A stretch of DNA of 41,270 nucleotides from contig JALUXH010000199.1 in assembly GCA_027019065.1 (NCBI GenBank), positions 1 through 41,270 on the forward strand, read 5' to 3'. A program made the translations under genes and the position numbers. How positions within the stretch are numbered: the first letter of the stretch is position 1; each line of letters starts with the position of its first letter. Shown one piece after another: positions 8,382-41,270 of the stretch. This stretch comes from Anaerolineales bacterium. Lineage in GTDB: Bacteria; Chloroflexota; Anaerolineae; Anaerolineales; DRMV01. The notes under the pieces are model-generated. The model was not told where the DNA came from. It saw nothing but the letters and a program-made list of their open reading frames with translations, and made no database searches.

Positions 8382-8391
8382 CCACAATTTT

Positions 8392-14532: not shown

Positions 14533-14614
14533 GGAGGTGCCCTCGCCAAAATCCTGTTGTGTGCCCTACCCGAATTTTCTGACCTCAGTCGCTTTTTCTA
14601 AGGAGGAAAGCAAG

Positions 14615-16066: not shown

Positions 16067-16079
16067 CCGTTCCACCCTT

Positions 16080-16120
16080 GCCGAGGGATGGCCGTTGTGA
16101 ACGCCATCCCTCGGCTTTTT
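16080..16120 (+). terminator. Stem-loop/terminator after the SBP gene
   Basis: GCCGAGGGATGGC ... GCCATCCCTCGGC followed by TTTTT. Confidence 0.7.
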
Positions 16121-16350
16121 TACCCCGCCCCTGCTCGGGCTTTTGCAAAACGGGCTGCGGATGGCGCAGAGAACGGTGGATGTGCGCGGCAACAGGGAAC
16201 ACCGCCACGAACTACGGCCACAAACCCGCTTTGCCGGCCCCGTTGTCTCGTCCGTTGTGCTCCTCAGGAAACGCTGTGGCTCGGCTTCTGCAGAATCTGC
16301 GGCTCGCTGCCGAGTTGAGCAGGCCCATTTCGCCTTTACCGAGGTGGCTT

Positions 16351-17286: not shown

Positions 17287-17298
17287 GGAGGAGCCCCC

Positions 17299-18195: not shown

Positions 18196-18263
18196 TTGCC
18201 GTCTCCCCCGTTTTATGGGCAGGATCGGCGGCGCGTGGGAACTTCCACGCGCCGCCTGGGCGT

Positions 18264-19040
18264 TTAAGGGGAATAGTGCTTTTGCAGCCAGGCGTGCCCC
18301 GGGCCCTGCTGCAGGCAGCCCGCCAGCGCCGCGGCTGTGGCGGGCGCATGGCGCGGAAGGAGCGCCAGCACGGGGGCTTCCCAGGCCGGAGGATGCACTG
18401 GCAGCGCCCGCACCTTTTGCGCGGCTTTGGGGAAAGCGCTCAGCCACGCCGCGGGCAGGAAGCCCAGCGCGGCGGCGTCGTCCTGCACGGCGGTGAGCAT
18501 GGCCTGGGGAGAGGGGGCGAGGGAAGCGTCGCCGCGGCGAGGGGCGGCCCCAAGCCAGGCATCCAGCCTGGCGCGTGCGGCCGTGCCGGGCATCGGCAGC
18601 CAGAGCGCCACGGGCGGGGGCGTGCCTTGCGTGCTGCTCCAGACCTGAACCTGCCCCATCACCATGCGGCGCAGGTCGGCCTCGGCGGGCGCGGCAGGGG
18701 TGCCGCGGGGCACCACTGCCACCAGCCGCTCACGGCCCAGCGGGAAAGCGCGCCAGCCCTCGGGCGGGCTTTCCCCCCACCACAGGCGGAGGTTGGCCGT
18801 CCCGGGCGGGGCGGCTTGCTGGGACTGCGAGAACACCGCCAGGGGGACGTTCAGGCCATGGGCACAGGTCTCCAGGGCTTCCCGCACCGGCGCCAGCGAC
18901 TGAGGCAGCGCCACGACCACCGGCTTCGGCAGGGGTGTGGGCGTCGCGGTGGGGGGCGCCGGCGCGGCGGGCGTGGCCGTTGCGGGCGCACAGGCGGCCA
19001 GCAGAAGCAAGAGCAAAAAAGTCCAGCGGCGGAAGCGCAT
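18264..19040 (-). CDS. Lipoprotein with divergent periplasmic-binding (PstS/PBP_like_2)-like domain
   Basis: Lipobox LAAC, PT-rich linker, FPLGRERLVAVV...LRRMVMGQVQVW...AVQDDAAALGFL pattern. Confidence 0.6.
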   Translation of the reverse strand: MRFRRWTFLLLLLLAACAPATATPAAPAPPTATPTPLPKPVVVALPQSLAPVREALETCAHGLNVPLAVFSQSQQAAPPGTANLRLWWGESPPEGWRAFPLGRERLVAVVPRGTPAAPAEADLRRMVMGQVQVWSSTQGTPPPVALWLPMPGTAARARLDAWLGAAPRRGDASLAPSPQAMLTAVQDDAAALGFLPAAWLSAFPKAAQKVRALPVHPPAWEAPVLALLPRHAPATAAALAGCLQQGPGHAWLQKHYSP

Positions 19041-19156
19041 GAGGGGAATATACCACACGCGCCGCGGTGTTACAATAAAAATGCAGCCTGGGCTCTTCCG
19101 GGCAGCGGGCGGGCTGGAGCGTCCAAAGGCCCGCGCGTCAGTCAAAGGAGGCAAGT

Positions 19157-23557: not shown

Positions 23558-24022
23558 ATGAACCTTTCTCCTCCCACCACAGAAGTTCCCGAAGAGCGCC
23601 TGATTGAAGCGCTGCGCGAGGCCGGCCTGCGGCTCACGCCGCAGCGGCTGGCCATCTGCCGCTACCTGGCAGGCAGCCACACCCACCCCACCCCGCAGGA
23701 AATCTACCGCGCCCTGAAGCCGGAATACCCCTCACTCAGCCTTGCCACCGTTTACAACACCCTCAGCGCGCTGGTAGAACTGGGCGCCATCCACGCCCTC
23801 GGCGATGCCGGCGACGACACCACCCACTACGACGCCGACACGGCGCCGCACATCAACCTGGTGTGCGTCCGCTGCCACCGCATCTTTGACCTTCCTCACC
23901 AGGCCGTCGCCGAACTGGAACAGGAGGCCGCCGAACACACCGGCTTCCGCATCTTTGGCGCGCGTGTCGTTTACTACGGCCTTTGCCCAGACTGCCAGCG
24001 AGCCGAAGCAAAAGAGCCATGA
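23558..24022 (+). CDS. Fur-family regulator, PerR-like
   Basis: GLRLTPQRLAI, HPT, SLATVYNTL, YD...PHINLVCVRC, CPDC. Confidence 0.88.
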   Translation: MNLSPPTTEVPEERLIEALREAGLRLTPQRLAICRYLAGSHTHPTPQEIYRALKPEYPSLSLATVYNTLSALVELGAIHALGDAGDDTTHYDADTAPHINLVCVRCHRIFDLPHQAVAELEQEAAEHTGFRIFGARVVYYGLCPDCQRAEAKEP

Positions 24023-26437: not shown

Positions 26438-27463
26438 TTATCGGCCTTCGGTTTTCCACGGAGCCACATACCACCGAAGATAGGCTTCCACATGGCGGCT
26501 CCAATAGGCTTCGTTGTGCCGGCCGACGTTGAAATGCCACTCGTGGGGGATGCCTTCCTTCGTCAACACCCCTTCAAACCAGCGCGCCGATTCGGTAATC
26601 TGGTGCTGGTCGGCATCGCCGATATCCAGGTAAATGCGCGGCCACTTGCCCGGCGGGATGCCCTGCAGCCAGGCACGAATGTGCGGCACGTCTTCCCAGA
26701 AGACCGGCGGGCTGTGGCCGCCAATGCTGCCGAACAGTTCCCAATGGGAAAGCCCCAGGTGAATGGCCCACGATGCCCCGCGGGAAAGCCCCCCGATGGC
26801 GCGGTCGCGGCGGTCGTTGCGGGTACGGAAGTGAGCCTCCACCCACGGCATGAGCACTTGCAGAAAAGTTTCATCCCAGCCGGTGTTGCGGGGCTGCTCC
26901 CATGAGCGCTCGCCGGGCATCACGATGATAAAAGGTGGCGCTTCTCCCGCGGCGATCAGGCGGTCGGCCGCGGCAGGCGCGCCCAGCCGCGCCCATTGCG
27001 TCTGGTCAAAATTTTGGCCGTGGATGAGATAAAGCACAGGGTAACGGCGGTCGGGCTGCTGCTCGTAGCACGGCGGCAGGTAAACCAGCACCGGCATTTT
27101 GTAGGTCAGGTAGCGGGAAGGCAGGGCGGCGCGGACCAGGTTCCCGCCGGCGCGCAAACAGGCGGCGGCAGGCGGCGTGGCGGTGAAGGCTGGCGCGGGC
27201 GAGAGGGCAGCGGTGGCCGCAAGGGGGGAAGGCGTTGGCAGCGGCAAAGGCGTTGCCGACGCCGCGGGGGAAACCGTCTGCGCCGGCGTCGGCGGCAACC
27301 AGGGTGTGGCCGTGCCGCGGCGCGGCGCCGCCGCGCACCCGCCCCACAAGAAAAGCCCGACGAGGAGTAACCACCATCGGGCCAATGCCGGGCGAGCCCC
27401 CCCGGCAACCTGCCGAAGCCGCGCCGGAGGCTGTTTTCCCCTTAGCGCACGCGCCGTTTCCAT
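26438..27463 (-). CDS. Exported/lipoprotein esterase (Fes/putative esterase family alpha/beta hydrolase)
   Basis: Hydrophobic signal with Cys, PT linker, VYLPPCY...YPVLYLIHG, nucleophile GGLSRG, DIGDAD, GRHNEAYW. Exact start uncertain. Confidence 0.82.
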   Translation of the reverse strand: METARALRGKQPPARLRQVAGGARPALARWWLLLVGLFLWGGCAAAPRRGTATPWLPPTPAQTVSPAASATPLPLPTPSPLAATAALSPAPAFTATPPAAACLRAGGNLVRAALPSRYLTYKMPVLVYLPPCYEQQPDRRYPVLYLIHGQNFDQTQWARLGAPAAADRLIAAGEAPPFIIVMPGERSWEQPRNTGWDETFLQVLMPWVEAHFRTRNDRRDRAIGGLSRGASWAIHLGLSHWELFGSIGGHSPPVFWEDVPHIRAWLQGIPPGKWPRIYLDIGDADQHQITESARWFEGVLTKEGIPHEWHFNVGRHNEAYWSRHVEAYLRWYVAPWKTEGR

Positions 27464-28230
27464 TCTTCTTTCAATTGCAATTGCTTTGGGCTGACGCCCG
27501 ATTCCAGCAGCAGGAAATCGGACATCAGGCGATTGAACTTGCTGGGTTCGTCCAGCATGGGAAAATGCCCCGATTTTTCAAAGACGATCTGGTGCATGTT
27601 GGCCGGCAGGCGGGCGAGGGTCTCTTCGGCCGGCAGGCCGATAAGGGGGTCGTTGCGGCCGTGCACCAGCAGGCACGGCGCTTCCACCCGCAAAACTTCG
27701 GCCAGCAAATCGGCTGCCCGGATTTCGGCCAGCGAGGTCGTGATGGCGGCCGGGTCGGTTTTCGGGGCTTCCTTGCGGGCGGTTTCCGTTGAAAGGGTAG
27801 GGGTGAGCAGCCAGGAAGCCAGGCGCTCCGGCGGTTCGCTTTGCAGCCGGGGGTGAATGGCTTCCACGGTGCTCGGCATCGCGATCATGGCCATGCGGTC
27901 TACGGCCAGCGGGTATTGCAGCGCAAAGAACAGGCCTACCACCGCGCCCAGGCCGTGGCCGATGAGCGCGACTTTCCCGATGCCCATTTCTTCCAGGAAG
28001 GCCGCCAGCAGGTGAATCTGTGCGGCGAGGGTGTAATGTTCGGGGTGCTTGTCGCTGTCGCCAAAGCCCCACAAATCCAGCGCATAGGCGCGATAGCGCT
28101 GGGAAGCGCCCTGCATCGCCGGCACCCAATAGCGCCACGAACCGACCCACCCGTGCAGGAAGAGCACGGGGCGGCCGCGTCCCAAAACTTCGTAATGCAC
28201 GATATGGTCTTTGATAATAATGGCGCTCAT
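27442..28230 (-). CDS. Alpha/beta-hydrolase-fold protein lacking the catalytic serine
   Basis: LFLHGW, ALDLWGFG, GHGLG in place of GHSxG, G.ND, SGHFPMLD. Confidence 0.88.
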   Translation of the reverse strand: MSAIIIKDHIVHYEVLGRGRPVLFLHGWVGSWRYWVPAMQGASQRYRAYALDLWGFGDSDKHPEHYTLAAQIHLLAAFLEEMGIGKVALIGHGLGAVVGLFFALQYPLAVDRMAMIAMPSTVEAIHPRLQSEPPERLASWLLTPTLSTETARKEAPKTDPAAITTSLAEIRAADLLAEVLRVEAPCLLVHGRNDPLIGLPAEETLARLPANMHQIVFEKSGHFPMLDEPSKFNRLMSDFLLLESGVSPKQLQLKEEWKRRVR

Positions 28231-28260
28231 GGGGCCACCTTCGGACGGATGAGGAAAGGG

Positions 28261-28638
28261 TCAGCCGCGGCCAACCTGTTGCAGCAGTTCGGCCACGCGG
28301 GCCGTCAACTGATCCGGAGAAAACGGCTTCAGGATGTAATCCACCGCTCCGGCGGCAAGGCCTTCCTTGACCTCGCTTTCCTGCCCTTTGGCCGAGAGAA
28401 ACACCACGGGAATGTCTTTCGTGGCCTCATCGGCTTTCAACTGGCGGCAGGCTTCATAACCGGTCAGGCGCGGCATCCGGACGTCCATCAGCACAATATC
28501 GGGCAATTCGCGGCGCACGGCCTCCACGGCTTCGGCGCCGTTGGCCGTGGGCACCACTTCGTGCCCTGCAAATTGCAGCGTGAAGGTAATCAGGTCGCGG
28601 ATGTCGCGTTCATCTTCGGCAATGACAATTTTTGCCAT
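28261..28638 (-). CDS. Single-domain response regulator
   Basis: IAEDE, DIVLMDVRMP, FLSAK, YILKPF. Confidence 0.95.
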   Translation of the reverse strand: MAKIVIAEDERDIRDLITFTLQFAGHEVVPTANGAEAVEAVRRELPDIVLMDVRMPRLTGYEACRQLKADEATKDIPVVFLSAKGQESEVKEGLAAGAVDYILKPFSPDQLTARVAELLQQVGRG

Positions 28639-28641
28639 GGC

Positions 28642-31600
28642 TCATGCCTCTCCAGCAGAATCTTCAAGTTCGGGGGGTAAAACGGGCAGCGTGAACGAGA
28701 AGGTGCTTCCCTCGCCGGGCACGCCGCTGCTTTCCAGCCAGATGCGCCCGCCGTGCATCTCTACCAACGTCCGCACGATAGACAGCCCCAGGCCGGTTCC
28801 GGCAGAGGCCATCACCAGCGGGTTTTCGCCGCGGTAGAAGCGTTCAAAGACCCGCGGCTGCTCTTCCGGCGGAATGCCGATGCCTGTATCCTGCACATCC
28901 ACCTGCACGGCGTCGCCGGCGCGCCGCGCCCGCACCACCACCCGGCCGCCTTCCGGCGTGTAGCGGTAGGCGTTTTCCACCAGGTTTTCGGCAATTTGCC
29001 GCACGCGTTCACGGTCGCCGTAGACCGGCGGCAGATCGGCGGGGATTTCCGCGCTGAAGGTCATGCTGCGGCCTTCCTCTTTTGCCACCCGCGCCTGCTC
29101 GGCAACGACCTCCTGAAGCAGGGCGGCCAGATCCACCGCTTCCAGCGCCAGCGAAATGCGCCCGGCCTCAATGCGGGAGATATCCAGCAGGTCGCCGACA
29201 AGCAGGTTAAGGCGCTCGGTGTTGCTTTTGACGGTTTCCAGGAATTTCTGCTGCTGGTCGGTGAGCGGCCCGGCCGCGCCCATCAGCAGAATGTCCACAT
29301 AGCCTTTGATGGCGGTCATGGGGGTTCGCAGTTCGTGGGAAACCGTGGCCACGAATTCCGATTTCAGGCGGTCGACTTCCACCTGGTGGGTAATGTCGCG
29401 AAACACCGACACCGTGCCCAGGAAATCTTTGCGGTAGAACACCGGCGCCAGGTGAACGGAAACCACGCGCCCGTCTTCCAGTTCCAGACGCTCTTCGTAG
29501 GCCACTTCCTGATCGCGGTAGCCTTCCGGTTCGGCAGACCAGTGGTGGATGGTTTCCATCCATTGGCGGCCTTCGCGGCCGAAAAGGCCCACGAAGTGTT
29601 CCAGCGGGCGGTTGAGGGCCTGCCCGGCGGGCAGGCCGAGGATGCGCTCGGCGGAAGAGTTGAAAAGGGTGATGACGCCTTTTCGGTCGGTCACGAGGAC
29701 GCCGTCGGCAATGGCTTCCAGAATGGCGCGGGCGCGGCTGGCTTCCACTTCCTGCTGGCGGAGCAGGCCGCCCAGCCGTTCGGCCTGTTCCCGAATCAGG
29801 TTGAAGAGTTCGGCATTGTTGATGGCCACGGCCACCTGGCGGGCGGTCGCAGAGGCCAGGTCAAGGTGGTAGTCGGTGAAGTGATGGGGCTGCGAGTGGA
29901 AGAGCAGCAGGGCGCCGAGCACATCCTGCGCCACTACCAGCGGCACGCCGATGACACTGCGGTGGGAAATCGGCAGCCCGTGGTCTTTTTTGCGCCAGCG
30001 GGGGTCTTTTTGCAGGTCGGGCACCAGCACGGCCTGGTTGTGGGCGATGATCCACCCGGCGAAAGAATCGGTGGCGGAAATATCGGTCGGGCGGCCGCCG
30101 AGGGGCGGCTGTTCGGCATAGCCCCGCCCGGCGCGCAGAAACAGCGTGGGGGCGTCGGGGCGTTTGAGCAGAATGCTGCTTTGCTCGGCGCTCAGGGCGT
30201 CGTTGAGCAGGTCAAGGGTGCGGTTGAGCACCTGGTCAAGGTCAAGGCTGGCCGAAAGTTCGGTGATGATGCGCAGCAAGGTTTGGGCGCGGTGGTGTTC
30301 CTGCTGCAGCCGGCGGGTGCGGTCGGCCACTCGGGCTTCCAGTTCTTCGGTAAAGCGGCGGCTGGCGGCGTAAAGGCGGGCGTTTTGGAGGGCGACGGCG
30401 GCCTGTTTGGCAAGCGTTTGGACGAGTTCAATTTCATCGCCGGTGAGGGACGCTTTTTCGGGCAGGTGGATGAACAGCGTTCCGAAGAGGGTTTGTCCGG
30501 CCGGAAGCGGCACGACGGTGACTTTGGGGGCGCGTGCAGCCAGGAAGGCTTCCAGCGGCTGCAAAAGCGGCTCGGTGTGCACGTCGGCATCGGCCAGCAC
30601 GCCCAGGCTTTCGGCAAGATGGGCAAAAACGGGCGCAAAGGGCAGTGTTTGGGGCAGGGGCTGCTCTTTTGGGGCGGGGGCTGTGGCCAGCAGGGTGGGG
30701 GTTTCGTCTTCCAGCAGCACAAAGGAAACCGCGCGGTTGCCCAGCGCCTCGTGCAGGCGGCGGGTGGTGTATTCGGCAATGTAAGCCGGGTCGAGCGATG
30801 CGGAAAGTTCGGCGGTCACTTCATAAACCAGCGCCAGACGGCGGGTGCGGTGGTCAAGTTCTTCGGCGTGGCGGCGCACTTCTTCGTAAAGGCGGGCGTT
30901 GCCCAGCGCGGCCGCGGCCTGCCCGGCAAAGGTTTCGGCCGTTTCAACCCAATCGCGGGTGAAGAAACCCGGTTCTTGCTTTTCAAGGGCAATCACGCCC
31001 AGCACTTCGTCTTTGAACCGCAGGGGCAGCCCCAGCCAGGAGCGGTTGGGCACGGCTTCCGGCGCCGGAAAGCGGTCGTCGGCGTGGGTGTCTTCCACAA
31101 CCAGCGCCTGACCTGAATCCAGCATTTCCTGGAAGAGGCGGCTGTCTTCCACGGCAATGGTGATGCCGAGCAGTTCTTCGGCGTTGGGGAAGCCGCGGGC
31201 GTCGCGCACCTGCAGCCGGTTGCCTTCCCGCAGCCAAAGGGTGCCGCCGTCGTAGGGCAGCACGGCAGCCAGGTGTTCAAGCAGCGAGGTTTCCACTTCT
31301 TCCAGCGAAAGGCTGCGCGCCACCAGGCCCGACGAGGCGCCGGCGAGGGCGTGCAGTTGCGAGGCGCGCCGCTCGGCCGTGCGCAGCAGGCGGGCGTTTT
31401 CCAGGGTGAGGGCCGTTTGCCCGGCCAGCGACACCACCAGCGACTGGTCTTCGCGGGTGAAGGCCGCCGTGGTGTTGAAGTTATCTAACACAATCACGCC
31501 CAGGGGGCGCTCGCCGGCGCGGATCGGCACCATCATGCTGGAAACCGGGATGCGGTCGGCCGTGGCGCGGCGGTAAGCGGTCAGGGCGTCTGATGCCAGC

Positions 31601-34600
31601 GGGTAAGCGGCGGCGAAGTCCAGTTCGCCAATGCGCCGCGGGCGGCCTTCCAGCATCACCTGCGCGGGCAGGCTGGTTTGCGGGAAGGTGATGGCGAGCA
31701 TGGCGCCGGCATCGGCATAGCCGCCGGCGACCTGGGGCTGAAGTTCGCCGCGCTCGGCATTCCACAGCGCCACGAAGCCGGCGTGGGCGTGCTGCAACGC
31801 GCTGAGGGTGCTTTCCATGAGGGTTTGGAGGATGCGGTTGGGGTCCAGCACGCCCAGCTGGCGGCTGAAGGTCAGCAGCAGGTCCACTTCCTGCAGGCGG
31901 CGGGAAGTGTGCGCCAGCAAATCCAGGTTTTGGAGCACGATGCCCACCTGCCGCCCCACGAGGTCAAAGATCATTTCGTCCTGAGCGGTGAAGGAAGGGG
32001 TCGGCATACTGGAAGTCGCCAGCACGATGTGATCTACGGTGGGCGTCTGGCTGCCCTGCTGCTCCACCAGCACAGGGAAGGCGACAAAGCTCTGCGCCTG
32101 CAGCCGCTGCAAAAGGGGTGAGCGCTGCCATTCGGGGGTGCGGTCTATATCGGAAACGACCAGCACCTGTTTCTGGTGGAAGGCTTCGGCCAGGGGGTTG
32201 CGCTGGCCGAGGAGCATATCCAGTTTGAGGGCGGGGGGCAGTTCTCCGAAGGTTTGCAGCAGGCGGACGCCGCCTTCTTCTGTTGCGCCGGGCACAAAGG
32301 GCGTGGGTTCGGCAATGAGCACGTAGTTGAAGCCGAAGCGCTCCATCAACTGGCGGCCGAGGGTTTGCAGCACGGCCGTGTGGCTGGGCTGCCGGTTGAG
32401 CAGGGCGGTGATTTCCAGGCTAATCCGCAGCCGTTCGGCCTGCCGGGCCAGGGCGTAGCGGTCAAGGGTTTGCTGCAGGTCTTTGTGCAGCCAGCGGGGG
32501 ATGTTGTTTTGCGCCTGGCGGGCGGCCGCTTCGGCTTCGGCCACGCGGTCGGTCAGGCGCTGCCGGTCGGTTTCCCATTCATCGGCCAGGTGCTGCACCT
32601 GCAGCAGCCAGGCCGCGGTGGCGGCAAACAGGCGCAGGATGTCTTGGGCGGGGGCATCGGGGCGGCGGGCGTCGCTGGGGGCATCAAGGTAGAGCAGCCC
32701 CAGCGGCTCGCCCTGGGTGGTACGCAGGGGGGCCAGCAGCAGGTCGCGCGGGTGCCAGGTGCGCGCGTCGGCGTGAGCGGGCATCGGGCGGGAAATTTCA
32801 GGCAGCGCCAGGCTGGCAGGCAGCCGGGGGCGTTCTTCCTGGGGAATGAAATACACACCGTGCTGTTGAAAACGGTCTTCCAGCAGCAGGCTGAGGTCAT
32901 CCCACCGGATGGGCTGCAGGGTTTCCATGCCCACCGAAGCCACCGGCTGCAAATGGCCGTTCTCGTCCAGGCGGGTCAGCAGCACGGCGTCGAAGCCCAG
33001 GGCTTCGCGCACCAGGGTTACAAAGGCCTCCACGGCCTCGCGCGGGGCCTCAAGGGGATGGGCTTTTTGCAAATAGCGTTGCAGCAGGTGCAGGGCGCGC
33101 ACCTGCCGTTGAAGGGCGACGTTTTCCTGAAAGAGGTTTTGGGCGTGCCGGGCGCTGCCCACGGCCAGGGCAATGTGTTGCGCCAGAAGGCGGGCGAATT
33201 GCTGCCGCGCGCCGCTGAAATGGTTGGGGTGGCGGCTGTGCAGATGGATCACGCCGACGAGGGTGTTTTGATAGCGCAGGGGCAAAGCAAGGGATGCCCG
33301 CACGCCTTCATGGGGCTGGGGGTAAGCCGCCACGCGGTAGTCGGCCACCTGCTCCGGGGTGCCGTGTTCCAGGGCGGCGTGGTCCAGGGGGTGAAAATGG
33401 AATTCGCAGGGCCCGCCGGTGTGGTGCAGCACCTTCCAGCCCCCGTTGGCACCGGCAGCCACCAGCATGGTTTGGCCGCAGTCGGCTTCGGTCAGCGCCA
33501 CCATTTGCTCATGTGCATAGGCCAGCAGTTGTTCTAACGACGAAAAAGCCGCCAGTTCCCGGCTGAGGCGGGTGAGGGTGCTCAGTTCCTGCACCTGGGT
33601 GCGCAGGGCTGCGTCGCTGCGGCCGAGCAGGCGCTGGCGCTCCACGCCGATGGCCATTTGGGCGGCGGTGGCGGCGGCCAGCTGCAGGTCGTTGCGGTCA
33701 AAATGGCCGGTTTGCGGGTGGCCGAGCAAAATTTCGCCCATGTTCTCGCCGTGCGCCTGCAGGGGCACCACAATGGCCGAGCGCACATCGCCCAAAGCCC
33801 GCAGCAGGGGGCGGTACGCGGCAATCACCCGCCGGTCGGTGGTCAGGTCGGCGGAAAGGAAAGGCCGCCCGGAACGGGTCACGGTGAGCGGGAAATCGGG
33901 GGCATTGGAAGGGATGGTGCCAATGGCGCGGGCTTTTTCGGGCGAAATGCCAAACAGGGAAGGTTCATGGGGGGCCAGTTGCGTTTGGTGTTCGTCCAGC
34001 AGCAACACGGCGGCGTAGCGGGCATCGACCAGGCGAGCCAGTTCCACCAGCGAGAATTTGAACAGTTCATCCAGGGTGGCAGGCGAAGCGGTCAGGCTGG
34101 CAATGCGGCGGAGGGCTTCCGCGCGGCGGGCGCGCTGGCGGGCTTCCTGGAAGAGCACCGCGTTTTCCAGCAGGGGGGCCACCTGGGCGGCAATCAGCGT
34201 GAGCACTTGCAGGTCGTCGTCGCCAAAGGGGCTGCCATCGGGCTTGTTGGCCGCCTGCAAGAAGCCGAGGAAGCGCTCGCCCGTGGTCAGAGGATAGAGC
34301 ACACTGGCATGAACGCCCGCCGTGCGGTTGAGTTCATCCAGGCCGAGGGTTTGCCAGCGGGCATCGGCGGCGGCTTCTTCTGTGGTCAGGGGTTCACCGG
34401 CCAGCAGCAGGGCTTCGGCTTCGCTGCCTGCCGGAATGCGCGTCTGGTAGGCGGCCACAAAACCCTCGGGAAGGCCGACAAACGGCCATTGCGCCGCCAG
34501 GGTGCGGTGGACTTCGTCGTAAAGCAGGAAGCCCAGCATTTCGGCCGGAAGGAGGGGACGGATGTTTTCCAGAATGCGTCCGACCAGTTCCTCAACCTGC

Positions 34601-35643: not shown

Positions 35644-35670
35644 TGCCTTCCCCTTGTGAGGGGTGAAAGG

Positions 35671-36567
35671 TCAGTTTTCGGTGGGCGTGTCTTTGCGGCG
35701 GGCTTCCGCAGCCAGTTCGGTGATTTCCCGAATGTCGGCGAACTGGTACTGAGAAGGTGAAACGATGCCCATGGAAAGGGTCATCAGGGGCACCTGGCGG
35801 GGGGCGCCGTCTTCTTCCACGGTGATGTAGCCCTGTTCACGGTCCATGAAGTTGTAATGGCTTTTGACTTCATCGGCAAAGCGCTCTTTCAGGCGGGCGC
35901 GGATGGCCGGCGCGGCTTCTTCGGTGGTGATGACCACAAAGTTTTCGTCGCCCGGGTGGCCGATAAAGTCTTCCGGCGTGCCGAGTTCGTCAACCACTTC
36001 ATTGAGCAGCATGGCGGTGAAGCGGAGGACGTCGTTGGCCGCCACGAAGCCGTACACTTCCCGGAAGGCGTCGTAGTAGTTGATACGGATATCCATCAGC
36101 GCCCAGCCGTCGGTGCGGATGATGCGGCGCAGTTGCTCTTCAATCAGCCGCCCGGCAGGAAGGCCGGAGCGCGGGTCGGTGAGGCTTTCCCGTTCGGCGC
36201 GGCGGATGGCGTTTTGCACCCGCAGGCGCAGTTCTTCAATGTCAAAGGGCTTGGTGATGTAGTCGTCCGCGCCGAGTTCCAGCCCCTGCAGGCGGTCGCT
36301 GCGCTCGTCTTTCTGGGTGAGGAAGATGACCGGGATATGGCTGGTGCGGATGCTGGTGCGGAGGCGGCGGCACACTTCGTAGCCGTCAATATCCGGCAGC
36401 ATGATATCCAGCACAATCAAGTGCGGCATACTCTGGCGCGTTTTCTCCAGGGCGTCAGAGCCGCGGGGGGCGAGTTCCACCTCGTAGCCCTGGCTGGAGA
36501 AGTAGATCTGGAGCATGTTGGCGATGTCCAAATCGTCTTCCACCACTAAAATGCGAGCCTTGCTCAT
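35671..36567 (-). CDS. Response regulator with degenerate GGDEF domain
   Basis: Intact REC (VVEDD, LDIMLP, FLT, KPF); DPRSGLP linker; signature reads GHPGDENF. Confidence 0.88.
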   Translation of the reverse strand: MSKARILVVEDDLDIANMLQIYFSSQGYEVELAPRGSDALEKTRQSMPHLIVLDIMLPDIDGYEVCRRLRTSIRTSHIPVIFLTQKDERSDRLQGLELGADDYITKPFDIEELRLRVQNAIRRAERESLTDPRSGLPAGRLIEEQLRRIIRTDGWALMDIRINYYDAFREVYGFVAANDVLRFTAMLLNEVVDELGTPEDFIGHPGDENFVVITTEEAAPAIRARLKERFADEVKSHYNFMDREQGYITVEEDGAPRQVPLMTLSMGIVSPSQYQFADIREITELAAEARRKDTPTEN

Positions 36568-36570
36568 AGC

Positions 36571-37671
36571 CTACCTCCCTGCTCGCGACGCCCGCCGTTT
36601 CTGGGCTGCGGCGCGCACCCGAGCGATGTGTTCGGCGGTGACCGGTTTTTCGAACGACCGGAAACCGCTCAGGCGAAAACCGTGCTTGCCTGCAATGCGG
36701 GTAATTTCTTCCACCTGGGCAAGGGAAATCTCTTTGCCGACGGTGTAGTCTTCAAAACGTCCTTCCAGGGCCAGGGCCATCGTTTCGGCCATGCAGGCAT
36801 ACGCCTTGCCGGGCGGGAAACCGAAATCAAAGTGGAAATCGACCGGCCCGGGCACCTCCACCATGCCGCCGTCAATGACCAGGACGTCGTCGCGCGCGGC
36901 AGCCACCTGGGCGGAAACGTCGCGCGGCCGGGCGACGTCGCAAACCACGCTGCCGGGCTGCAGGTGTTCGGGGGCAATCACGGCATCCAAGGCGCTGGTC
37001 ACGGTCAGGATTAACTGGGCGTGGCGCAGGTCGCGCATCTCGGTGCTGACGCGCAAGCGCGCCCGGCCGCCGTCGGCGGCAATGCGTTCCCGCACGGCTT
37101 CCAGGGGGGCACGGTGCCGTCCCATTAAGTATACCTCACCCGCGCGGCGGGCAATCAGGGTCGCGGCAACCCGTCCAATGGCGCCGGAAGCCCCCACCAC
37201 GGCTGCGGTGGCTTCCGCCGGGGGGATGGCCATCAGGCGGGCGGCTTCCCAAACGGCGTCCACGGCAATGGCTACGGTGTAGGAATCGCCGGTGGTGACG
37301 GGCACGTCCAGCGCCCGCGCCACCGTGGCCCCGGCATCGCCCACCACCGAGGTGAATGCCCCCAACCCTAAAATTTTGGCGCCCAGCCGCTCGGCCAGGC
37401 GTCCGGTCTGGATGATTTTCCGGTACACCATCCGCTCGGGCAGTTCCAGCATCCGCCGCGGGGTGTAGGGGCAGGCAATGAACCAGCCTTTGATTTCTTT
37501 GCCGGTGGCCTGAGAAACGATGCCTGTAATTTCGGAAATGTAAACCGGCGGGAAGAAAGTGGAAAAAAAGTCAATTTGCCGCTCGGTGAGGATGCGCCCC
37601 AAAAGTGGGAACTTGCGGCTGACATCGCGTTTGGGGTCAATGGGGTGAATGATAAAAGCAAAAGTATCCAT
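36571..37671 (-). CDS. Long-chain acyl-ACP reductase-like NAD(P)-dependent oxidoreductase (COG5322-type)
   Basis: FAFIIHP, LGAFTSVV, VTTGDSYT, VVGASGAIG, DVARPRDV, IDGG, YACMAETM parallel the cyanobacterial AAR motifs. Confidence 0.7.
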   Translation of the reverse strand: MDTFAFIIHPIDPKRDVSRKFPLLGRILTERQIDFFSTFFPPVYISEITGIVSQATGKEIKGWFIACPYTPRRMLELPERMVYRKIIQTGRLAERLGAKILGLGAFTSVVGDAGATVARALDVPVTTGDSYTVAIAVDAVWEAARLMAIPPAEATAAVVGASGAIGRVAATLIARRAGEVYLMGRHRAPLEAVRERIAADGGRARLRVSTEMRDLRHAQLILTVTSALDAVIAPEHLQPGSVVCDVARPRDVSAQVAAARDDVLVIDGGMVEVPGPVDFHFDFGFPPGKAYACMAETMALALEGRFEDYTVGKEISLAQVEEITRIAGKHGFRLSGFRSFEKPVTAEHIARVRAAAQKRRASRAGR

Positions 37672-37737
37672 AAGCGCGGCGCTGCAAGGGTGATGGTCTG
37701 GTGGAGGGGGCCGTCGGGGCCGGAAGGCTGCGCGGGG

Positions 37738-39021
37738 CTACCAGGAATGCGAACTTTGTTCGCCCGGGCGGGGGTAAAGGCGGGGATGGCGGTGCCCACC
37801 GCGAAGGTGGTGGTGGTCGCTTTCCTCGTAAGGGACGTCTTTCATAATGACCCGCCGTTCGGGCGAGGCCGCCAAAACGACATCCGATTCAATCATGCGG
37901 GCGGGGTAAATGACCAGCCCCGAGCCCAGGCGGCAGTTGTGACCCACACAGCCGCCGAGCACCGGGCGGTTGGCGTCGCGCAGCAGGCCGTGGCCGTCGC
38001 GGGCTTTGATGGGGGCGGAAATCAGGTTGAAATCGGTAAAGGTGGTCCCCGCGCCGATAAAAGTGTTGCGCCCTACCACGCACATTTGCAGGCAGGTGTT
38101 TTGGGCCACCATGCTGTTGTCCATCAGCGTGGTCATGAAAAGGGCGGCGCGAAAGGGCAGGAAGGCGCCGTCGCCGACGACCGAGAGCAGCAGCTGGCAG
38201 CCCTGGGAAATGTTGACGTTATCGCCGATGATGCAGTTATCTACCACGGCGCCCGCGCCGATGGTGACGTTATCGCCGATGAGGGTGGGCCCGTGGATGA
38301 CGGCGGTGGGGTCGATCACGGCGTTGCGCCCCACAACCACCAGCGGCGAAGCCGAGAGCACCTGCTTCCCTTCGTACATGGCTTTGGCGAGCACACGCAG
38401 TTTGAAGAACGGGTCGCGGTTGAGGCGGGCTTCAAAGCGCGCCCCGCGGGCAAAAACGCCGAAGACCACATCGGCAATAAAAATGTGTACCCAACTGTCA
38501 ATGGCCAGCAGCGCCCGCAGCGGCACCTGGAACACCAGGTCGCCCTGCTCGGTGGCCATATAAGTCGGGACGTGGTAATAGCCGATTTCCCGCGCCTGCA
38601 GGTCGATGACCAGCGGCTCCGGCGTTTCATCGGTGGCGGTGCCGTGGGGGTAGTACCACAGGTCGGCAAGGTAAAGGTCGCCCTGAGGCGTGTATGAGAC
38701 GGAAAGGGGCAGGGCGTGTTCGCGGAAGGCCGGGTCATCGGCCGCCAAAGCGGCCTGCACCGGGCGGCCGCGCTTGCGGGCGGCTTCCAGGAAAGCCCGG
38801 ATGTAGAATTCGTCAAAGAAAAGGTTGTCGCGATAAACAATGGCTTCTTCGCGCACCGGCGGCAGGCGGCGGCCGGCGCGGATCTCAATTTCCCGCTCCA
38901 CGTAGGGCGTCAGCACATCGCGCTGGGCCAGCCAGAGCGGCTTGTTGTGAATTCGCAAGTCGCGTGCCGGTTCGTTGAAGGGCGGGATATGCCGGTCGTC
39001 GCGCAGAATGATTTTGAGCAT
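37738..39021 (-). CDS. Left-handed beta-helix (hexapeptide repeat) protein with degenerate nucleotidyltransferase-like N-terminus
   Basis: VGRNAVIDPTAVIHGPTLIGDNVTIGAGAVV... repeats, FIGAGTTFTDF; N-terminal PARDLRIHNKPL. Confidence 0.72.
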   Translation of the reverse strand: MLKIILRDDRHIPPFNEPARDLRIHNKPLWLAQRDVLTPYVEREIEIRAGRRLPPVREEAIVYRDNLFFDEFYIRAFLEAARKRGRPVQAALAADDPAFREHALPLSVSYTPQGDLYLADLWYYPHGTATDETPEPLVIDLQAREIGYYHVPTYMATEQGDLVFQVPLRALLAIDSWVHIFIADVVFGVFARGARFEARLNRDPFFKLRVLAKAMYEGKQVLSASPLVVVGRNAVIDPTAVIHGPTLIGDNVTIGAGAVVDNCIIGDNVNISQGCQLLLSVVGDGAFLPFRAALFMTTLMDNSMVAQNTCLQMCVVGRNTFIGAGTTFTDFNLISAPIKARDGHGLLRDANRPVLGGCVGHNCRLGSGLVIYPARMIESDVVLAASPERRVIMKDVPYEESDHHHLRGGHRHPRLYPRPGEQSSHSW

Positions 39022-39048
39022 GGGCTGTCGGAAGCGCGCCCGGGCGCT

Positions 39049-39606
39049 TCAGTGCAGGGGGTGCTGCGGAATGTAGAGCGCGGCCGGGAAATCGTCGGCG
39101 GGGCGCACGGCAAACCATCGCCCGCCGCTCAGCCAGTAGAGCATTTCTTGCAGATAGCCTTCCCACGGGGTGCAGCGGAAGGCTTGCGCGGGGTGGGCGG
39201 GTGCGAAGGGGCAGCGCTGCGAATGCCAGAGCATGGCGCGGGGCAGGGTTTCTATCTGGACGGCCAGGCCGAACCACGCGGAGGTCAGCGCTGCGAGGTG
39301 GTGCAGCCCGGTGGCCATTTTGCGGGGCCACGGCAGGAAACGAAACGCCGCGGCCTGGAAGATGCTTTCTTCGGCAAGATGGGGAATCATCTGGCGGGCA
39401 AAGGCGCGGCCAATCCGCAGCCCTATGCCCAGCCCGGCCGCCTCGCCGTAATGCGCGCACAGGGCGGGCAGCAGGGTTTCCCACGGGCGCAGCGGGGTTT
39501 CCGCCTGGGGCAGGAAATCTGCCGGCCCGAGAATTTCGCGCACGGCTTCCTGCCATGCCCTGGCAACATGCACATCCACAACCGCTGCTGCCGGCGAGAA
39601 AATCAT
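39049..39606 (-). CDS. V4R (4-vinyl reductase)-like domain protein, degenerate
   Basis: YG...G.G..LRIGRA, AFRFLPW..K..TGL, W..QRCPF, C...EGYLQEMLYWLSGG pattern; C-terminal Cys pair missing. Confidence 0.65.
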   Translation of the reverse strand: MIFSPAAAVVDVHVARAWQEAVREILGPADFLPQAETPLRPWETLLPALCAHYGEAAGLGIGLRIGRAFARQMIPHLAEESIFQAAAFRFLPWPRKMATGLHHLAALTSAWFGLAVQIETLPRAMLWHSQRCPFAPAHPAQAFRCTPWEGYLQEMLYWLSGGRWFAVRPADDFPAALYIPQHPLH

Positions 39607-40418
39607 GTTTCCGGTACCTCGGCCAGGTCGGGATGGGCGCCTTCCAAAAAGGCGTGCAGGGACGCCACAAAGGCATGCGGCTGGTCAAGCATGATGAAAT
39701 GCCCGGCTTCTTTGAAGCGCACAATTTCGGCATGGGGCACGCCCCGTTTGAGGGCTATCCACTGGCGGGGGTTGACGATGACGTCTTTGTTGCCGTACAT
39801 GCCCATCACCGGCACCCGGATTTGGGAAAGGGAGGGTTCCAAATTGGTGCGCCGCAAGGAAGCAATGCTGTGCAGGAAAGATTCCAGCGTGGTTTGGGAA
39901 AGGTCGCGGTCCATCATTTCGGGCCAGCGGGGGTCTTTAGAGATAAGGGGTGAAGTCAGGCGAATGCCCAGTTTGAGCAGGGTCATTTGATGATAGACCA
40001 GGAAGGCGATGGGGCGGTAACCGGCCAGTTTGAGGGGGAGGGAAAGGGAGTTGCCGTCAATGGGAGAGCCAATGACCACCACCCGGCTGACGCGCTCGGG
40101 GTAGCGGATGGCCACGCTGAGGGAAACCGTGCCCCCCATGCTGTGCCCCACCAGCGGGGCATGGCTGATGCCGAGTTGTTCCATGAATTGATCTACCAGG
40201 CTGACGAAGTCGGCAACATCGTAAGAGTCGCGCTTTTTGCCGGATTCCCCAAACCCCCAAAAATCCAGCGCGTAGGCGCGGTAATACTGCCCCAGGTAGG
40301 CCATGGTTTCCTGCCACACGCCCCATGAGCCGAGCCAGCCATGCAGCAAAATCACAGGTTTGCCGCGCCCGAAAACCTCGTAATGAACAACGCCCTGATC
40401 GGTGGTAATAGAAGACAC
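39603..40418 (-). CDS. Alpha/beta hydrolase with intact Ser-Asp-His triad
   Basis: LLHGW, GHSMGG, GNKD, AGHFIMLD; GTG start. Confidence 0.9.
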   Translation of the reverse strand: MSSITTDQGVVHYEVFGRGKPVILLHGWLGSWGVWQETMAYLGQYYRAYALDFWGFGESGKKRDSYDVADFVSLVDQFMEQLGISHAPLVGHSMGGTVSLSVAIRYPERVSRVVVIGSPIDGNSLSLPLKLAGYRPIAFLVYHQMTLLKLGIRLTSPLISKDPRWPEMMDRDLSQTTLESFLHSIASLRRTNLEPSLSQIRVPVMGMYGNKDVIVNPRQWIALKRGVPHAEIVRFKEAGHFIMLDQPHAFVASLHAFLEGAHPDLAEVPET

Positions 40419-40531
40419 AACGGCCTCGGTGTTCTAAAATGAGGGGGAAGGCGCGCCCGCCGCGGCAGCGCCGCCTCGCCTGGGCGCGCTTTCTGCTCTC
40501 GCGGGCAGGGGCGGCCGGAACACCCAGGCGG

Positions 40532-41071
40532 TCACGCCCGATTGCCCTCAATTTCTTCCATGATGCTGAGCAGCAATTCCAGCAGCACCTTTTTCACCGA
40601 TTCTTTGTCGGTGGCCACGCAGGGCAACAGCTTGACGTGCGTATCCAGCCGGAGGGCAATGCGCATATCGTCAAGTTCCCAGGCATCGTCCATATCCTGT
40701 TTGTTGGCGGCAACCACGTAAGGGGTAGGGGCATAAGCGCGGAAGGTTTCCAGGATGCTGCGGGCTTCCCGAAAGGTCTCCGGGCGGGTGCTGTCAACCA
40801 GCACAATGAACCCCAGCATGCCTTCAGAGAGAATTTCCCACATGAAGTCAAAGCGACGCTGGCCAGGGGTGCCGAAGAGGTAGAGCACCAGGTCTTCATC
40901 CACGGTAATGCGGCCAAAATCCATCGCAACGGTGGTTGTATCTTTGACTCTTTCGGCCTCGCTGGTAATTTTGCGCTCCGTCGCGACGACGTCAATTTCG
41001 CTGACGGTCTGAATGAAGGCCGTTTTGCCTGCGTTGAAGGGGCCGGTCACCACAATTTTTACAGTCTGCAT
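40532..41071 (-). CDS. MglA/conservon CvnD-like small GTPase
   Basis: GPFNAGKT (G1), TTTVAMDFG (G2), FGTPGQRRF (G3), NKQD (G4). Confidence 0.92.
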   Translation of the reverse strand: MQTVKIVVTGPFNAGKTAFIQTVSEIDVVATERKITSEAERVKDTTTVAMDFGRITVDEDLVLYLFGTPGQRRFDFMWEILSEGMLGFIVLVDSTRPETFREARSILETFRAYAPTPYVVAANKQDMDDAWELDDMRIALRLDTHVKLLPCVATDKESVKKVLLELLLSIMEEIEGNRA

Positions 41072-41168
41072 GGCATAATTCCTCGGTCAAAGGATCGTTG
41101 AAAAAGGGAAAGCCGCTGCCTCGGGGAAAAACAACCGTTGAGATGATACCGGGGGGGGCAGAAAACCC

Positions 41169-41270
41169 TCAGAGGCCGCGAATGCGGGAAATCAGACGAT
41201 TGACCAGCGAGCGTTGCTCTTCTTTGGATTTGCCTTCCAGTGCCGTGTGAATGGGGCGGGGCGGGGCGGG
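41169..41270 (-). CDS. C-terminus of upstream gene, probably the DUF4388-type partner of the GTPase (truncated by window edge)
   Basis: My translation: PAPPRPIHTALEGKSKEEQRSLVNRLISRIRGL*. The amphipathic RL..RIR.L ending is typical of conservon CvnC/DUF4388-type proteins that precede MglA-like genes. Confidence 0.55.
   Translation of the reverse strand, partial: PAPPRPIHTALEGKSKEEQRSLVNRLISRIRGL

Follow-up and report, generated by a model that had tools for sequence, protein, structure and literature searches.

What is encoded by a run of co-oriented genes that places a small GTPase, a giant histidine kinase and several enzyme-fold proteins side by side, and do these genes belong together? 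The window, meaning the whole stretch of DNA that was analysed, comprises 41,270 nt of an Anaerolineales bacterium (GCA_027019065.1, contig JALUXH010000199.1), in which an operon of eleven genes, all on the minus strand, occupies positions 26438..41270. By their coordinates, neighbouring genes overlap by 4 bp at one junction and by 22 bp at another, and the remaining gaps measure 3, 3, 27, 27, 30, 66, 97 and 113 bp. A preliminary description had reported at least eleven co-oriented genes with overlaps or gaps of 3–113 bp and had named their domains, and all are present as claimed.

Table 1. Genes of the operon, in order of transcription, with positions in the window.
Feature	Coordinates	Strand	Remarks
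DUF4388/PATAN gene, 3' end	41169..41270	-	33 codons + stop
Small Ras-like GTPase, MglA family	40532..41071	-	GTPGQ type
Active-type alpha/beta hydrolase	39603..40418	-	GHSMGG
Degenerate V4R-family member	39049..39606	-	185 aa
Nucleotidyltransferase-like/LbH protein	37738..39021	-	nucleotidyltransferase-like fold, then left-handed beta-helix
AAR/PigE-N-type NAD(P)-dependent thioester reductase homologue	36571..37671	-	
Response regulator, REC + weak GGDEF	35671..36567	-	
Histidine kinase	28642..35643	-	2333 aa; 10 GAF, PAS, HisKA, HATPase_c
Single-domain response regulator, REC	28261..28638	-	
Nucleophile-less alpha/beta-hydrolase-fold protein	27442..28230	-	GHGLG
Exported esterase	26438..27463	-	PF00756, 3.8e-27

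We compared AAR-anchored loci from about 80 Anaerolineae species, counting a gene only where the locus was long enough and leaving out one locus owing to its truncated AAR gene. The order GTPase, active hydrolase, (V4R), LbH protein, AAR-like reductase, REC-GGDEF-fold regulator, multi-GAF kinase, REC and serine-less hydrolase recurs in about 80 species, which places the arrangement far beyond chance and bears out the earlier proposal that the genes form a conserved unit, with synteny not confined to this genome. The LbH protein is present in 75/75 loci and the REC protein in 51/51, and a serine-less hydrolase follows REC in 54/54. The REC-GGDEF-fold regulator was found in 75/77 (the miss in L021 is a script artefact, and L038 truly lacks the gene), the kinase in 72/74 (L010 an artefact, L038 a true miss), the active hydrolase in 55/63, the GTPase in 51/60 (L071 an artefact, the other eight true misses) and DUF4388 in 47/54. 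Median intergenic gaps across related loci are 3–26 bp, and the cluster proteins are as conserved as FtsH, with identities in the same genomes of 64–73% for FtsH, 70–73% for the LbH protein and 83–89% for the GTPase. Because gene order is kept across a whole class of Chloroflexota, the cluster is, judged from sequence, a real and strongly conserved signalling system.

Other classes keep a core of V4R, LbH protein, REC-GGDEF-fold regulator, GAF kinase and nucleophile-less hydrolase, with V4R immediately preceding LbH in five families, and carry the PATAN-GTPase pair and an AAR-like domain elsewhere in the genome. One lineage (L085) has a single run of DUF4388, GTPase, Roadblock, V4R, LbH, alpha/beta hydrolase and Roadblock genes, and thus a roadblock inside the cluster itself. 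The LbH family seems confined to Chloroflexota, which we treat as a lead only. In one sample of 401 genomes, with presence lists compared by eye, the GTPase occurred in 66/66 LbH-positive and 5/335 LbH-negative genomes, a co-occurrence that is inflated because relatives share ancestry and are not independent; within family f3 both genes are jointly present in one of nine genomes, and within f9 in one of two. In 8/60 loci of Anaerolineae, and in four families besides, the part formed by PATAN, GTPase and active hydrolase stands apart from the remaining genes; it could therefore be a separate system that often happens to lie close by.

Roadblock/MglB genes, which the preliminary description had suggested might lie upstream, are absent there; a roadblock gene is found instead at a second conserved locus of the same genome, where it adjoins paralogues of the V4R and REC-GGDEF-fold genes. 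This locus reads Roadblock, V4R, REC-GGDEF-fold paralogue (46% identical) and GT2, and it is conserved in 3/3 other genomes examined, with the GT2 gene in two of the three.

We see roughly even chances that these genes make up an undescribed, phylum-wide system with many pseudo-enzymes, in which an MglA-family GTPase is coupled to a phosphorelay. The stretch would then represent, in its Anaerolineae version, a signalling system that several Chloroflexota classes inherit vertically and that has two coupled parts. One would consist of the GTPase and its PATAN/DUF4388 partner, together with the roadblock (MglB-like) protein and the conserved V4R protein from the second locus; the other would be a phosphorelay of a giant, mostly cytoplasmic multi-GAF/PAS kinase, a REC-only regulator and a REC-GGDEF-fold regulator predicted not to synthesise c-di-GMP, accompanied by the nucleotidyltransferase-like/LbH protein and the nucleophile-less hydrolase, both of which appear to have lost their catalytic signatures. 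The sequences show which genes are present, their order, how far they are conserved and co-occur, and the state of their motifs; each step of the signal flow, and its output, we infer. The flow might run from intracellular ligands read by the GAF array, through phosphorylation of both receivers by the kinase, to the always-adjacent LbH protein, on which the REC-GGDEF-fold regulator would act by contact between the proteins or by binding nucleotides. An on/off or positional switch could be added by the GTPase, whose cycling would depend on roadblock and perhaps on V4R or PATAN, and the likely output would be envelope glycan or lipid synthesis, or cell or filament polarity. In Anaerolineae, an AAR-like thioester reductase and an active hydrolase, catalytically intact by their residues, would have been recruited into the operon.

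The GTPase carries the motifs GPFNAGKT (G1), TT (G2), GTPGQ (G3) and NKQD (G4), and tblastn found no second such gene in the assembly. Its assignment to the MglA family was confirmed: GTPGQ, NKQD and the Thr-Thr of G2 fit MglA groups 2–5 as set out in PMC4316618, as opposed to group 1, with its TVPGQ motif and intrinsic Arg finger. The GTPGQ motif is also common to conservon GTPases, and the actinobacterial conservon (CvnA-D) corresponds to MglA group 2 of Wuichet and Sogaard-Andersen 2014 (PMC4316618). Like a conservon, the locus genetically couples a GTPGQ GTPase to a histidine kinase, includes a roadblock/LC7 protein (here at the level of the whole system and not adjacent in this genome) and has no obvious DNA-binding regulator as output. 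The likeness ends short of membership, which the earlier label of conservon-like had implied and which is ruled out by the absence of DUF742/CvnC, by a kinase with 10 GAF domains and PAS in place of the TM-HAMP architecture of CvnA, and by a G4 motif of NKQD, not NxFD. The kinase also lacks a terminal LPxR motif, two response regulators are present against none in conservons, and the hosts are Chloroflexota, not Actinobacteria. The MglA/MglB polarity switches of Myxococcus and Thermus, which have PATAN-domain proteins nearby (PMC4316618; bioRxiv 10.1101/2021.06.11.447907), resemble this system in an MglA-family GTPase lacking the G3 Asp, a PATAN/DUF4388 gene directly upstream, roadblock genes in the genome and a link to response regulators; here, however, the operon of the GTPase also encodes enzyme-fold proteins and a giant GAF kinase, a setting that has not been described for MglA systems. 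The earlier DUF4388 assignment holds, although only the C-terminal 33 codons lie inside the window. They correspond to the C-terminus of a 274-aa DUF4388 protein in locus L047; the 236 N-terminal codons are found in this assembly at the edge of another contig, C187 (L093:2-709, minus strand; PF14332, 6.6e-28), with about six codons missing in the assembly gap between the two contigs.

Within the putative phosphorelay, the kinase has a hydrophobic N-terminus followed by the GAF array, PAS, HisKA (SHELRTP at residue 2102) and HATPase_c. Both receivers keep their phospho-acceptor (Asp52, conserved, in the single-domain REC; Asp54 in the REC-GGDEF-fold regulator), and a domain search detected no DNA-binding domain in either. 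The GGDEF motif reads GDENF in the window, and GG[DE]EF occurs nowhere in the proteins of 86 relatives, 86/86 of which have GGDNF, GDENF or worse, so that cyclase activity is unlikely and the earlier description of this domain as dead proved correct across relatives; inspection by eye found no RxxD site upstream of the motif. WspR, PleD and DgcR share the REC + GGDEF architecture and fold (Foldseek 1.5e-21 to 8e-19) and the intact acceptor, and differ in that this family lacks the GG[DE]EF signature. The call of a dead hydrolase was likewise sustained: across 61 relatives the nucleophile position holds G in 38, D in 10, N in 6, S in only 4 and A in 3, with the Asp and His of the triad retained. 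Receptor-type or pseudo alpha/beta hydrolases include RsbQ, KAI2/D14 and GID1; like these, the protein has a genetic link to a PAS/GAF signalling protein, and like GID1 it has no nucleophile. Its closest sequence relatives, however, are meta-cleavage-product and epoxide hydrolases and not RsbQ or KAI2, and the Asp at the nucleophile position in 10/61 relatives is as in epoxide hydrolases.

Among proteins that join a nucleotidyltransferase domain to LbH, GlmU, ST0452 and GMPPB are enzymes, and GMPPA, GlgD and eIF2B gamma/epsilon are regulatory and non-catalytic. The protein encoded here shares this two-domain fold, with top Foldseek matches to ST0452 (4.4e-12), GMPP, GlmU and eIF2B, but at only about 13% identity; Pfam recognises its hexapeptide repeats and returns no NTP_transferase family match at E <= 0.01. 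The N-terminal position of what we take to be the nucleotide-binding glycine-rich loop is occupied by KIILRDDRHIPPF. The missing family match and this motif suggest that the protein may be non-catalytic, and given a sugar-nucleotidyltransferase-plus-LbH fold without that match, it may not be a lipid-chemistry enzyme at all.

The reductase is homologous over its full length to solved AAR (1.1e-24) and PigE (1.4e-36), although its scores fall far below the equivalog cut-offs of NCBIfam PigE, N-terminal part (3.4e-62, 210.9 against 850 bits), and AcACP_reductase (3.1e-30, 105.7 against 449.7 bits). Like cyanobacterial AAR and the thioester-reductase domain of PigE (PMC8341465) it has the active-site Cys (YACMAET), which aligns with that of the solved proteins and is kept in 80/80 relatives, and a conserved Rossmann GxxGxxG; unlike PigE it has no fused aminotransferase. 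The nucleophile Ser of the active hydrolase (GHSMGG elbow) is present in 62/62 aligned relatives. Linkage of these two genes to the signalling genes is limited to Anaerolineae and close kin, and elsewhere in the phylum the AAR-like domain is part of a 684–691-aa fusion at another locus. The best reading of this distribution is that they are additions specific to Anaerolineae and close kin. The window's V4R protein, whose gene overlaps that of the active hydrolase by 4 bp, has no Pfam or NCBIfam match of its own. The earlier V4R-like call is true through its relatives, since 36 of 41 aligned family members match PF02830, while this copy is degenerate: of five C-terminal cysteines that are kept in 34/41 members, two or three are missing from the window's copy and from its four closest relatives. 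The gene is also absent from 11/58 related loci, and V4R therefore appears dispensable at this position.

Lipid chemistry as the heart of the system, as originally proposed, does not fit the restricted linkage of reductase and active hydrolase. In that model, which we now regard as unlikely, these enzymes and the LbH protein, acting as an acyltransferase, would make and process an acyl-derived molecule that V4R, the dead hydrolase and the GAF kinase sense and pass to the phosphorelay and the GTPase. The conserved catalytic Cys and Ser are consistent with it, as are weak LbH matches to the acyl-ACP-dependent LpxA and LpxD, the placement of the nucleophile-less hydrolase beside the kinase in 54/54 loci, as expected of a receptor-type pseudo-hydrolase, and the binding of small molecules by V4R domains, including palmitate by TRAPPC3 (PMC10933270). 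However, outside Anaerolineae and close kin, the LbH protein, REC-GGDEF-fold regulator, kinase and nucleophile-less hydrolase stay together with no AAR-like gene or active hydrolase in the cluster. V4R has lost its cysteine cluster in the window and is absent from 11/58 loci, and in fold the LbH protein comes closest to sugar-1-phosphate nucleotidyltransferases and eIF2B subunits and not to lipid acyltransferases.

The catalytic residues kept in all relatives of the reductase and first hydrolase also make a metabolic reading of the Anaerolineae operon possible, in which reductase, LbH transferase, hydrolases and exported esterase build an envelope lipid, glycolipid or glycan, the two-component genes only regulate it, transcriptionally or allosterically, and PATAN-GTPase is a separate neighbour. 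The GT2 glycosyltransferase ending the paralogous locus, an alpha/beta hydrolase after the AAR-like fusion gene in one other-class genome, and the detached PATAN-GTPase loci agree with this account. We nevertheless consider it improbable, as both response regulators lack a DNA-binding domain, catalytic signatures are missing from several of the 'enzymes', LbH and GTPase co-occur genome by genome even where unlinked, Roadblock and V4R stand between GTPase and LbH in L085, and the esterase is limited to four nearest relatives. That order is conserved by descent or co-regulation only, with the genes serving unrelated functions, would agree with the break-up of the cluster into modules in some lineages, yet it is very hard to reconcile with order and short gaps kept across about 80 species at such FtsH divergence, with modules that re-associate in different combinations in other classes, with the repeated V4R and REC-GGDEF-fold pairing at the paralogous locus, and with the GTPase in every LbH-positive genome; we give this account very little credence.

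The esterase gene, absent from six loci with at least 1.3 kb beyond the nucleophile-less hydrolase, probably lies outside the conserved unit; its product has a lipoprotein-type N-terminus, and it overlaps the gene of that hydrolase by 22 bp.

The window comprises the whole of contig C199; the assembly totals 2.48 Mb over 277 contigs. Between position 26438 and the contig end, the window carries eleven minus-strand genes. Pfam and NCBIfam searches bore out the preliminary description of this stretch, in that the eleven genes are co-oriented, contain the named domains and are separated by short junctions; from the coordinates, two junctions are overlaps (4 and 22 bp) and the remaining ones are gaps of 3–113 bp. 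Because a P-type (E1-E2) ATPase gene on the opposite strand converges on the cluster, the operon ends at ~26438. A promoter and terminator scan was uninformative (promoter-like, 3 vs 2.2 expected; terminator-like, 26 vs 18.5 expected) and returned no convincing intergenic minus-strand terminator. At the other end, the 33 C-terminal residues encoded by the first gene correspond to the final residues of a DUF4388 (PATAN) protein of 274 aa in a related locus (L047), and the gene's N-terminal 236 codons lie at the edge of contig C187 of the same assembly; about six codons thus fall in an assembly gap that interrupts the gene. Both the C187 part (97.6 bits) and the L047 orthologue (102.4 bits) passed the PF14332 (DUF4388) gathering cut-off of 25 bits.

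Genes and other features discussed in the text, on the window unless another contig or locus is named
Feature	Location	Strand	Remarks
DUF4388/PATAN gene, 3' end, last 33 codons	41169–41270	minus	1st in transcription order
Ras-like GTPase, 179 aa		minus	2nd; ATP_bind_1 1.5e-20, Ras 8.3e-11
Alpha/beta hydrolase with GHSMGG (active hydrolase)	39603–40418	minus	3rd; Pfam/NCBIfam
185-aa protein		minus	4th; no family match of its own
Hexapeptide-repeat, left-handed beta-helix (LbH) protein, 427 aa	37738–39021	minus	5th; Pfam/NCBIfam
Reductase, 366 aa, homologue of acyl-ACP reductase (AAR) and PigE N-terminal part		minus	6th; Pfam/NCBIfam
REC plus weak GGDEF protein	35671–36567	minus	7th; Pfam/NCBIfam
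Kinase, 2333 aa: ten GAF stretches, PAS, HisKA, HATPase_c		minus	8th; Pfam/NCBIfam
REC, 125 aa		minus	9th; Pfam/NCBIfam
Alpha/beta hydrolase with GHGLG (nucleophile-less)	27442–28230	minus	10th; Pfam/NCBIfam
PF00756 esterase, lipoprotein-type N-terminus		minus	11th; Pfam/NCBIfam
P-type (E1-E2) ATPase	23983–26316	plus	converges on cluster
FtsH	9481–11379		
Three long ORFs	14585–19202		535, 381 and 406 aa
AT-skew drop	16001–18000		-0.206
NgoMIV-type restriction endonuclease and DNA methylase genes	633–2824	minus	endonuclease PF09015, 3.2e-102
Roadblock/LC7	C166 (L100) 6044–6499	plus	second locus
V4R	C166 6518–7156	plus	second locus; Pfam match
REC-GGDEF paralogue	C166 7160–8011	plus	second locus; 46% identical to window's
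GT2 glycosyltransferase	C166 8015–8740	plus	second locus
Roadblock/LC7	C88 (L101) 12004–12375		upstream of CTP synthase
Single-run cluster, family f14	L085 (G015:C23) ~8039–13899	minus	seven genes
AAR-like fusion genes	L094:5033–7087; L096:4794–6869; L099:5636–7693		684–691 aa
Insertion in place of V4R gene	L042 ~6287–8700		2.4 kb

This gene order is conserved within the Anaerolineae. A search with the reductase, using one genome per species, returned at least 451 relatives, and we analysed the best 80 loci, all from Chloroflexota and mainly Anaerolineales; the window proteins were mapped onto them by tblastn, one locus was dropped as its reductase gene is cut off, and each gene was counted solely in loci long enough to judge. 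The LbH gene lies directly upstream of the reductase in 75/75 loci, the small REC gene is present in 51/51, and the nucleophile-less hydrolase follows REC in 54/54. The REC-GGDEF gene was found downstream of the reductase in 75/77 loci and the kinase in 72/74; one miss in each case is an artefact (L021, from ORF picking, and L010, respectively), and the other, in L038, is a true absence of both. Somewhat lower counts were obtained for the active hydrolase (55/63), the DUF4388 gene (47/54) and the GTPase (51/60, with one artefact, L071, and eight loci truly without an upstream GTPase). Median intergenic gaps across the related loci were 3–26 bp. Identity to the window copy, measured in four genomes belonging to its order, is 70–73% for the LbH protein, 83–89% for the GTPase and 64–73% for FtsH, which argues that selection acts on the first two as strongly as on this housekeeping protease. 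The esterase was seen solely in the four nearest relatives (L001, L002, L045 and L047), with most loci ending too early to judge; it was rejected as a core member, having no match in L029, L033, L036, L042, L084 and L087, which extend at least 1.3 kb past the nucleophile-less hydrolase gene.

The GTPase carries the motifs G1 GPFNAGKT, G2 Thr-Thr, G3 GTPGQ and G4 NKQD in 56/56 aligned relatives, thus combining a Ras-like G domain with the G1 GxxxxGKT, Asp-less G3 (xxPGQ) and G4 NKxD of the MglA family; solved MglA structures are among its matches (2e-06), and tblastn found no other such protein in the assembly. In PMC4316618, MglA group 1 is defined by TVPGQ and an Arg finger and the conservon GTPase, group 2, by G3 GTPGQ and G4 NxFD; judged by these motifs, the protein belongs to the MglA family within groups 2–5, and neither to group 1 nor to conservon group 2. 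The label "conservon-like" in the preliminary description therefore fails on the G4 motif, even though G3 agrees, and two further components speak against it. CvnC (DUF742, PF05331) has no match over the cut-off in the whole assembly, where the two sub-threshold matches both lie on contigs other than the window's, and the kinase departs from the CvnA type (TM, HAMP, C-terminal LPxR), with no HAMP match and a C-terminus reading ...LPVLPPELEDSAGEA. We consequently rejected a classical conservon, on account of the missing DUF742 protein and CvnA-type kinase, the NKQD motif, a roadblock gene that is not adjacent and the response regulators that the cluster, in contrast to conservons, contains. In its GTPase part the cluster is alike to MglA/MglB/PATAN systems, and PATAN genes near group 1 and group 5 MglA genes have been noted previously (PMC4316618; bioRxiv 10.1101/2021.06.11.447907).

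A look upstream for roadblock/MglB genes, as the preliminary description had proposed, found none: C187 encodes a TRAM/methyltransferase, an M16 peptidase, a luciferase-like oxidoreductase and a DNA polymerase III delta' subunit, and no roadblock/LC7 gene occurs in the window, on C187 or in the 80 related loci. Two roadblock genes lie elsewhere in the window's genome, and adjacency to the GTPase was observed only in L085, a locus of family f14, another family of the phylum. Using tblastn with the cluster proteins against the window's assembly, we detected paralogues on contig C166, where roadblock, V4R, REC-GGDEF and GT2 glycosyltransferase genes are co-oriented with gaps of 3–18 bp. The roadblock, V4R, REC-GGDEF order recurs in 3/3 other genomes of the order and the GT2 gene in 2/3, and the C166 roadblock protein is ~70% identical to both in-cluster roadblock proteins of L085. 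The other roadblock gene, on C88, lies directly upstream of CTP synthase, with no GTPase nearby.

Across the phylum, the LbH protein was detected in 66/401 genomes, including 24/24 of family f2, 25/25 of f22 and 1/9 of f3, and in none of many other families. Twelve loci from other families share a constant core of LbH, REC-GGDEF, multi-GAF kinase and a mostly Ser-less alpha/beta hydrolase, and have neither reductase nor GTPase. A well-conserved V4R gene stands directly upstream of LbH in f38, f59, f68, f14 and f9, and in these genomes the DUF4388–GTPase pair sits elsewhere. In L085, DUF4388, GTPase, roadblock, V4R, LbH, alpha/beta hydrolase and a further roadblock gene form one run; a guanylate kinase gene follows it, and a REC-GAF-kinase hybrid and a LuxR-type regulator are encoded upstream. 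The AAR-like domain of other classes is the C-terminal half of a fusion protein, whose 310-aa N-terminal part belongs to no Pfam family and resembles none of the cluster proteins; the fusion gene of L094 is followed by an alpha/beta hydrolase gene, the two overlapping at stop and start. The GTPase occurs in 71/401 genomes (E <= 1e-40), and comparison of the lists by eye placed it in 66/66 LbH-positive genomes vs 5/335 LbH-negative ones, the two proteins sharing the same single genome in f3 (1/9) and in f9 (1/2). Since the relatives are non-independent, this co-occurrence counts as support, not proof, for a link between the two.

The AlphaFold model of the LbH protein (pLDDT 83.6, 49 aligned relatives) gave ST0452 (4.4e-12), GMPP, GlmU and eIF2B subunits as best Foldseek matches, at ~13% identity. 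The fold thus matches that of the GlmU class, and the family match that would go with it is absent: residues 1–220 have no NTP_transferase-type match in Pfam or NCBIfam. At the site where we presume the glycine-rich nucleotide loop to lie, the sequence is KIILRDDRHIPPF. We therefore treat the protein as nucleotidyltransferase-like/LbH, with a catalytic activity that is uncertain and possibly lost; public names of its relatives ('multidrug transporter', 'DapH/DapD/GlmU-related', 'carbonic anhydrase/acetyltransferase-like') are uninformative. The predicted structure of the REC-GGDEF protein (pLDDT 89.4) matches WspR, PleD and DgcR. Its GGDEF-fold domain reads GDENF in the window and GGDNF, GDENF or worse in relatives, with the diguanylate cyclase motif GG[DE]EF in 0/86, so "dead" is apt for the GGDEF domain; the acceptor Asp is kept in both receivers of the cluster. 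Complex prediction of the LbH and REC-GGDEF proteins, with two alignments, scored 0.01 and is evidence neither way.

The alpha/beta hydrolase near the end of the operon, rightly described as dead, has Gly in place of the nucleophile in the G-x-Nu-x-G elbow; among 61 relatives this position is G in 38, D in 10, N in 6, S in 4 and A in 3. The triad Asp and His are kept, and the best matches of this hydrolase among solved structures include Asp-nucleophile epoxide hydrolases. The other hydrolase retains the Ser nucleophile in 62/62 relatives. The reductase Cys (YACMAET) aligns with the Cys of the solved AAR and PigE structures (6jzq and 4ppm) and is kept in 80/80; the protein has the active-site Cys and NAD(P) fold of TIGR04058, at 105.7 bits against an equivalog cut-off of 449.7. 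By sequence it is homologous to AAR and to the thioester-reductase domain of PigE (PMC8341465), with scores below both equivalog cut-offs.

The 185-aa protein had been termed V4R-like, a description that holds by descent and not for the window copy itself. Pfam V4R (PF02830) was matched by 36 of its 41 aligned relatives and MetOD1 by 30, and their consensus reads ...ERCPLCW...C...C...C; the window protein has no V4R match at E <= 0.1. Of the five C-terminal Cys that 34/41 relatives keep, the window copy has 2, and two or three are missing in this copy and in those of the four closest relatives. In the 58 loci where both flanking genes are present, 45 contain the V4R gene and 11 have a gap of <=235 bp, too short for it. 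At this position the V4R gene is thus decaying, and the window copy is a decayed member of the family. In one locus only, L042, an insertion between the hydrolase and LbH genes replaces the V4R gene.

Taken together, the operon is most likely the form that a three-part, modular system found across the phylum takes in one lineage. One part would comprise PATAN, the MglA-type GTPase, roadblock and V4R; another the nucleotidyltransferase-like/LbH protein, the REC-GGDEF protein, the multi-GAF kinase, REC and the nucleophile-less hydrolase; and the third, confined to the Anaerolineae, an active-type thioester reductase and an active-type hydrolase. The GAF array would signal to the kinase, and the kinase to the two receivers, after which the REC-GGDEF protein would act on the LbH protein, and the GTPase, cycled by roadblock, would provide a second switch. 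Envelope synthesis or polarity would be the output; weak pointers to a glycan or glycolipid are the GT2 gene of the second locus and the sugar-nucleotide fold seen in the LbH protein, and the genome's one T2SSE ATPase would allow a link to pili. We rate the system as belonging among small-GTPase-plus-two-component systems.

A different reading, which we consider unlikely, would make the cluster a bacterial regulatory assembly for small GTPases, composed of folds that also surround the Rab, Rag and eIF2 GTPases of eukaryotes. V4R and/or the nucleotidyltransferase-like/LbH protein would then supply the exchange factor or effector that GTPGQ-type MglA GTPases are missing, and the giant GAF kinase would gate the assembly via the REC-GGDEF protein. 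The folds concerned would be roadblock (the Ragulator fold), the nucleotidyltransferase-LbH pseudo-enzyme (the eIF2B gamma/epsilon fold), PATAN, and V4R, which has been proposed as the ancestor of TRAPP Bet3/TRAPPC3 (PMC2253512 and PMC10933270). That proposal makes the position of V4R beside a GTPase and roadblock noteworthy, and such a neighbourhood in bacteria is relevant to how eukaryotic GTPase regulators arose; the text of PMC2253512 that was searched mentions neither GTPases nor roadblock.

Small Ras-like GTPases of the GTPGQ type occur widely in bacteria, and by the account of PMC4316618 none is characterised beyond the actinobacterial conservon, with neither exchange factor nor output known for them. 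The modular system favoured here offers a defined candidate partner set, in that a GTPase lies in an operon as conserved as FtsH and co-occurs, genome by genome, with a pseudo-enzyme, a non-catalytic REC-GGDEF protein and a ten-GAF kinase, and several enzyme folds within it appear to have been turned into signalling parts. A literature search found no description of the cluster, and the supplementary MglA gene-neighbourhood tables of PMC4316618 may list its genes. All parts are known folds; what is undescribed, as far as we have seen, is their combination, the conservation of that combination, and the second locus. The one trace that the search turned up is for Anaerolinea thermolimosa, where PMC8756737 tabulates DUF4388, GTPase, alpha/beta hydrolase and glmU-like genes consecutively and makes no functional claim; in its appendix table the next gene after the glmU-like LbH gene is one for cytochrome cd1 nitrite reductase, and the cluster may be interrupted there in this species.

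Elsewhere in the window, three long ORFs have no Pfam family, and AT skew falls to -0.206 within that stretch. An NgoMIV-type restriction endonuclease gene adjoins a DNA methylase gene, and the two form a type II restriction-modification pair.
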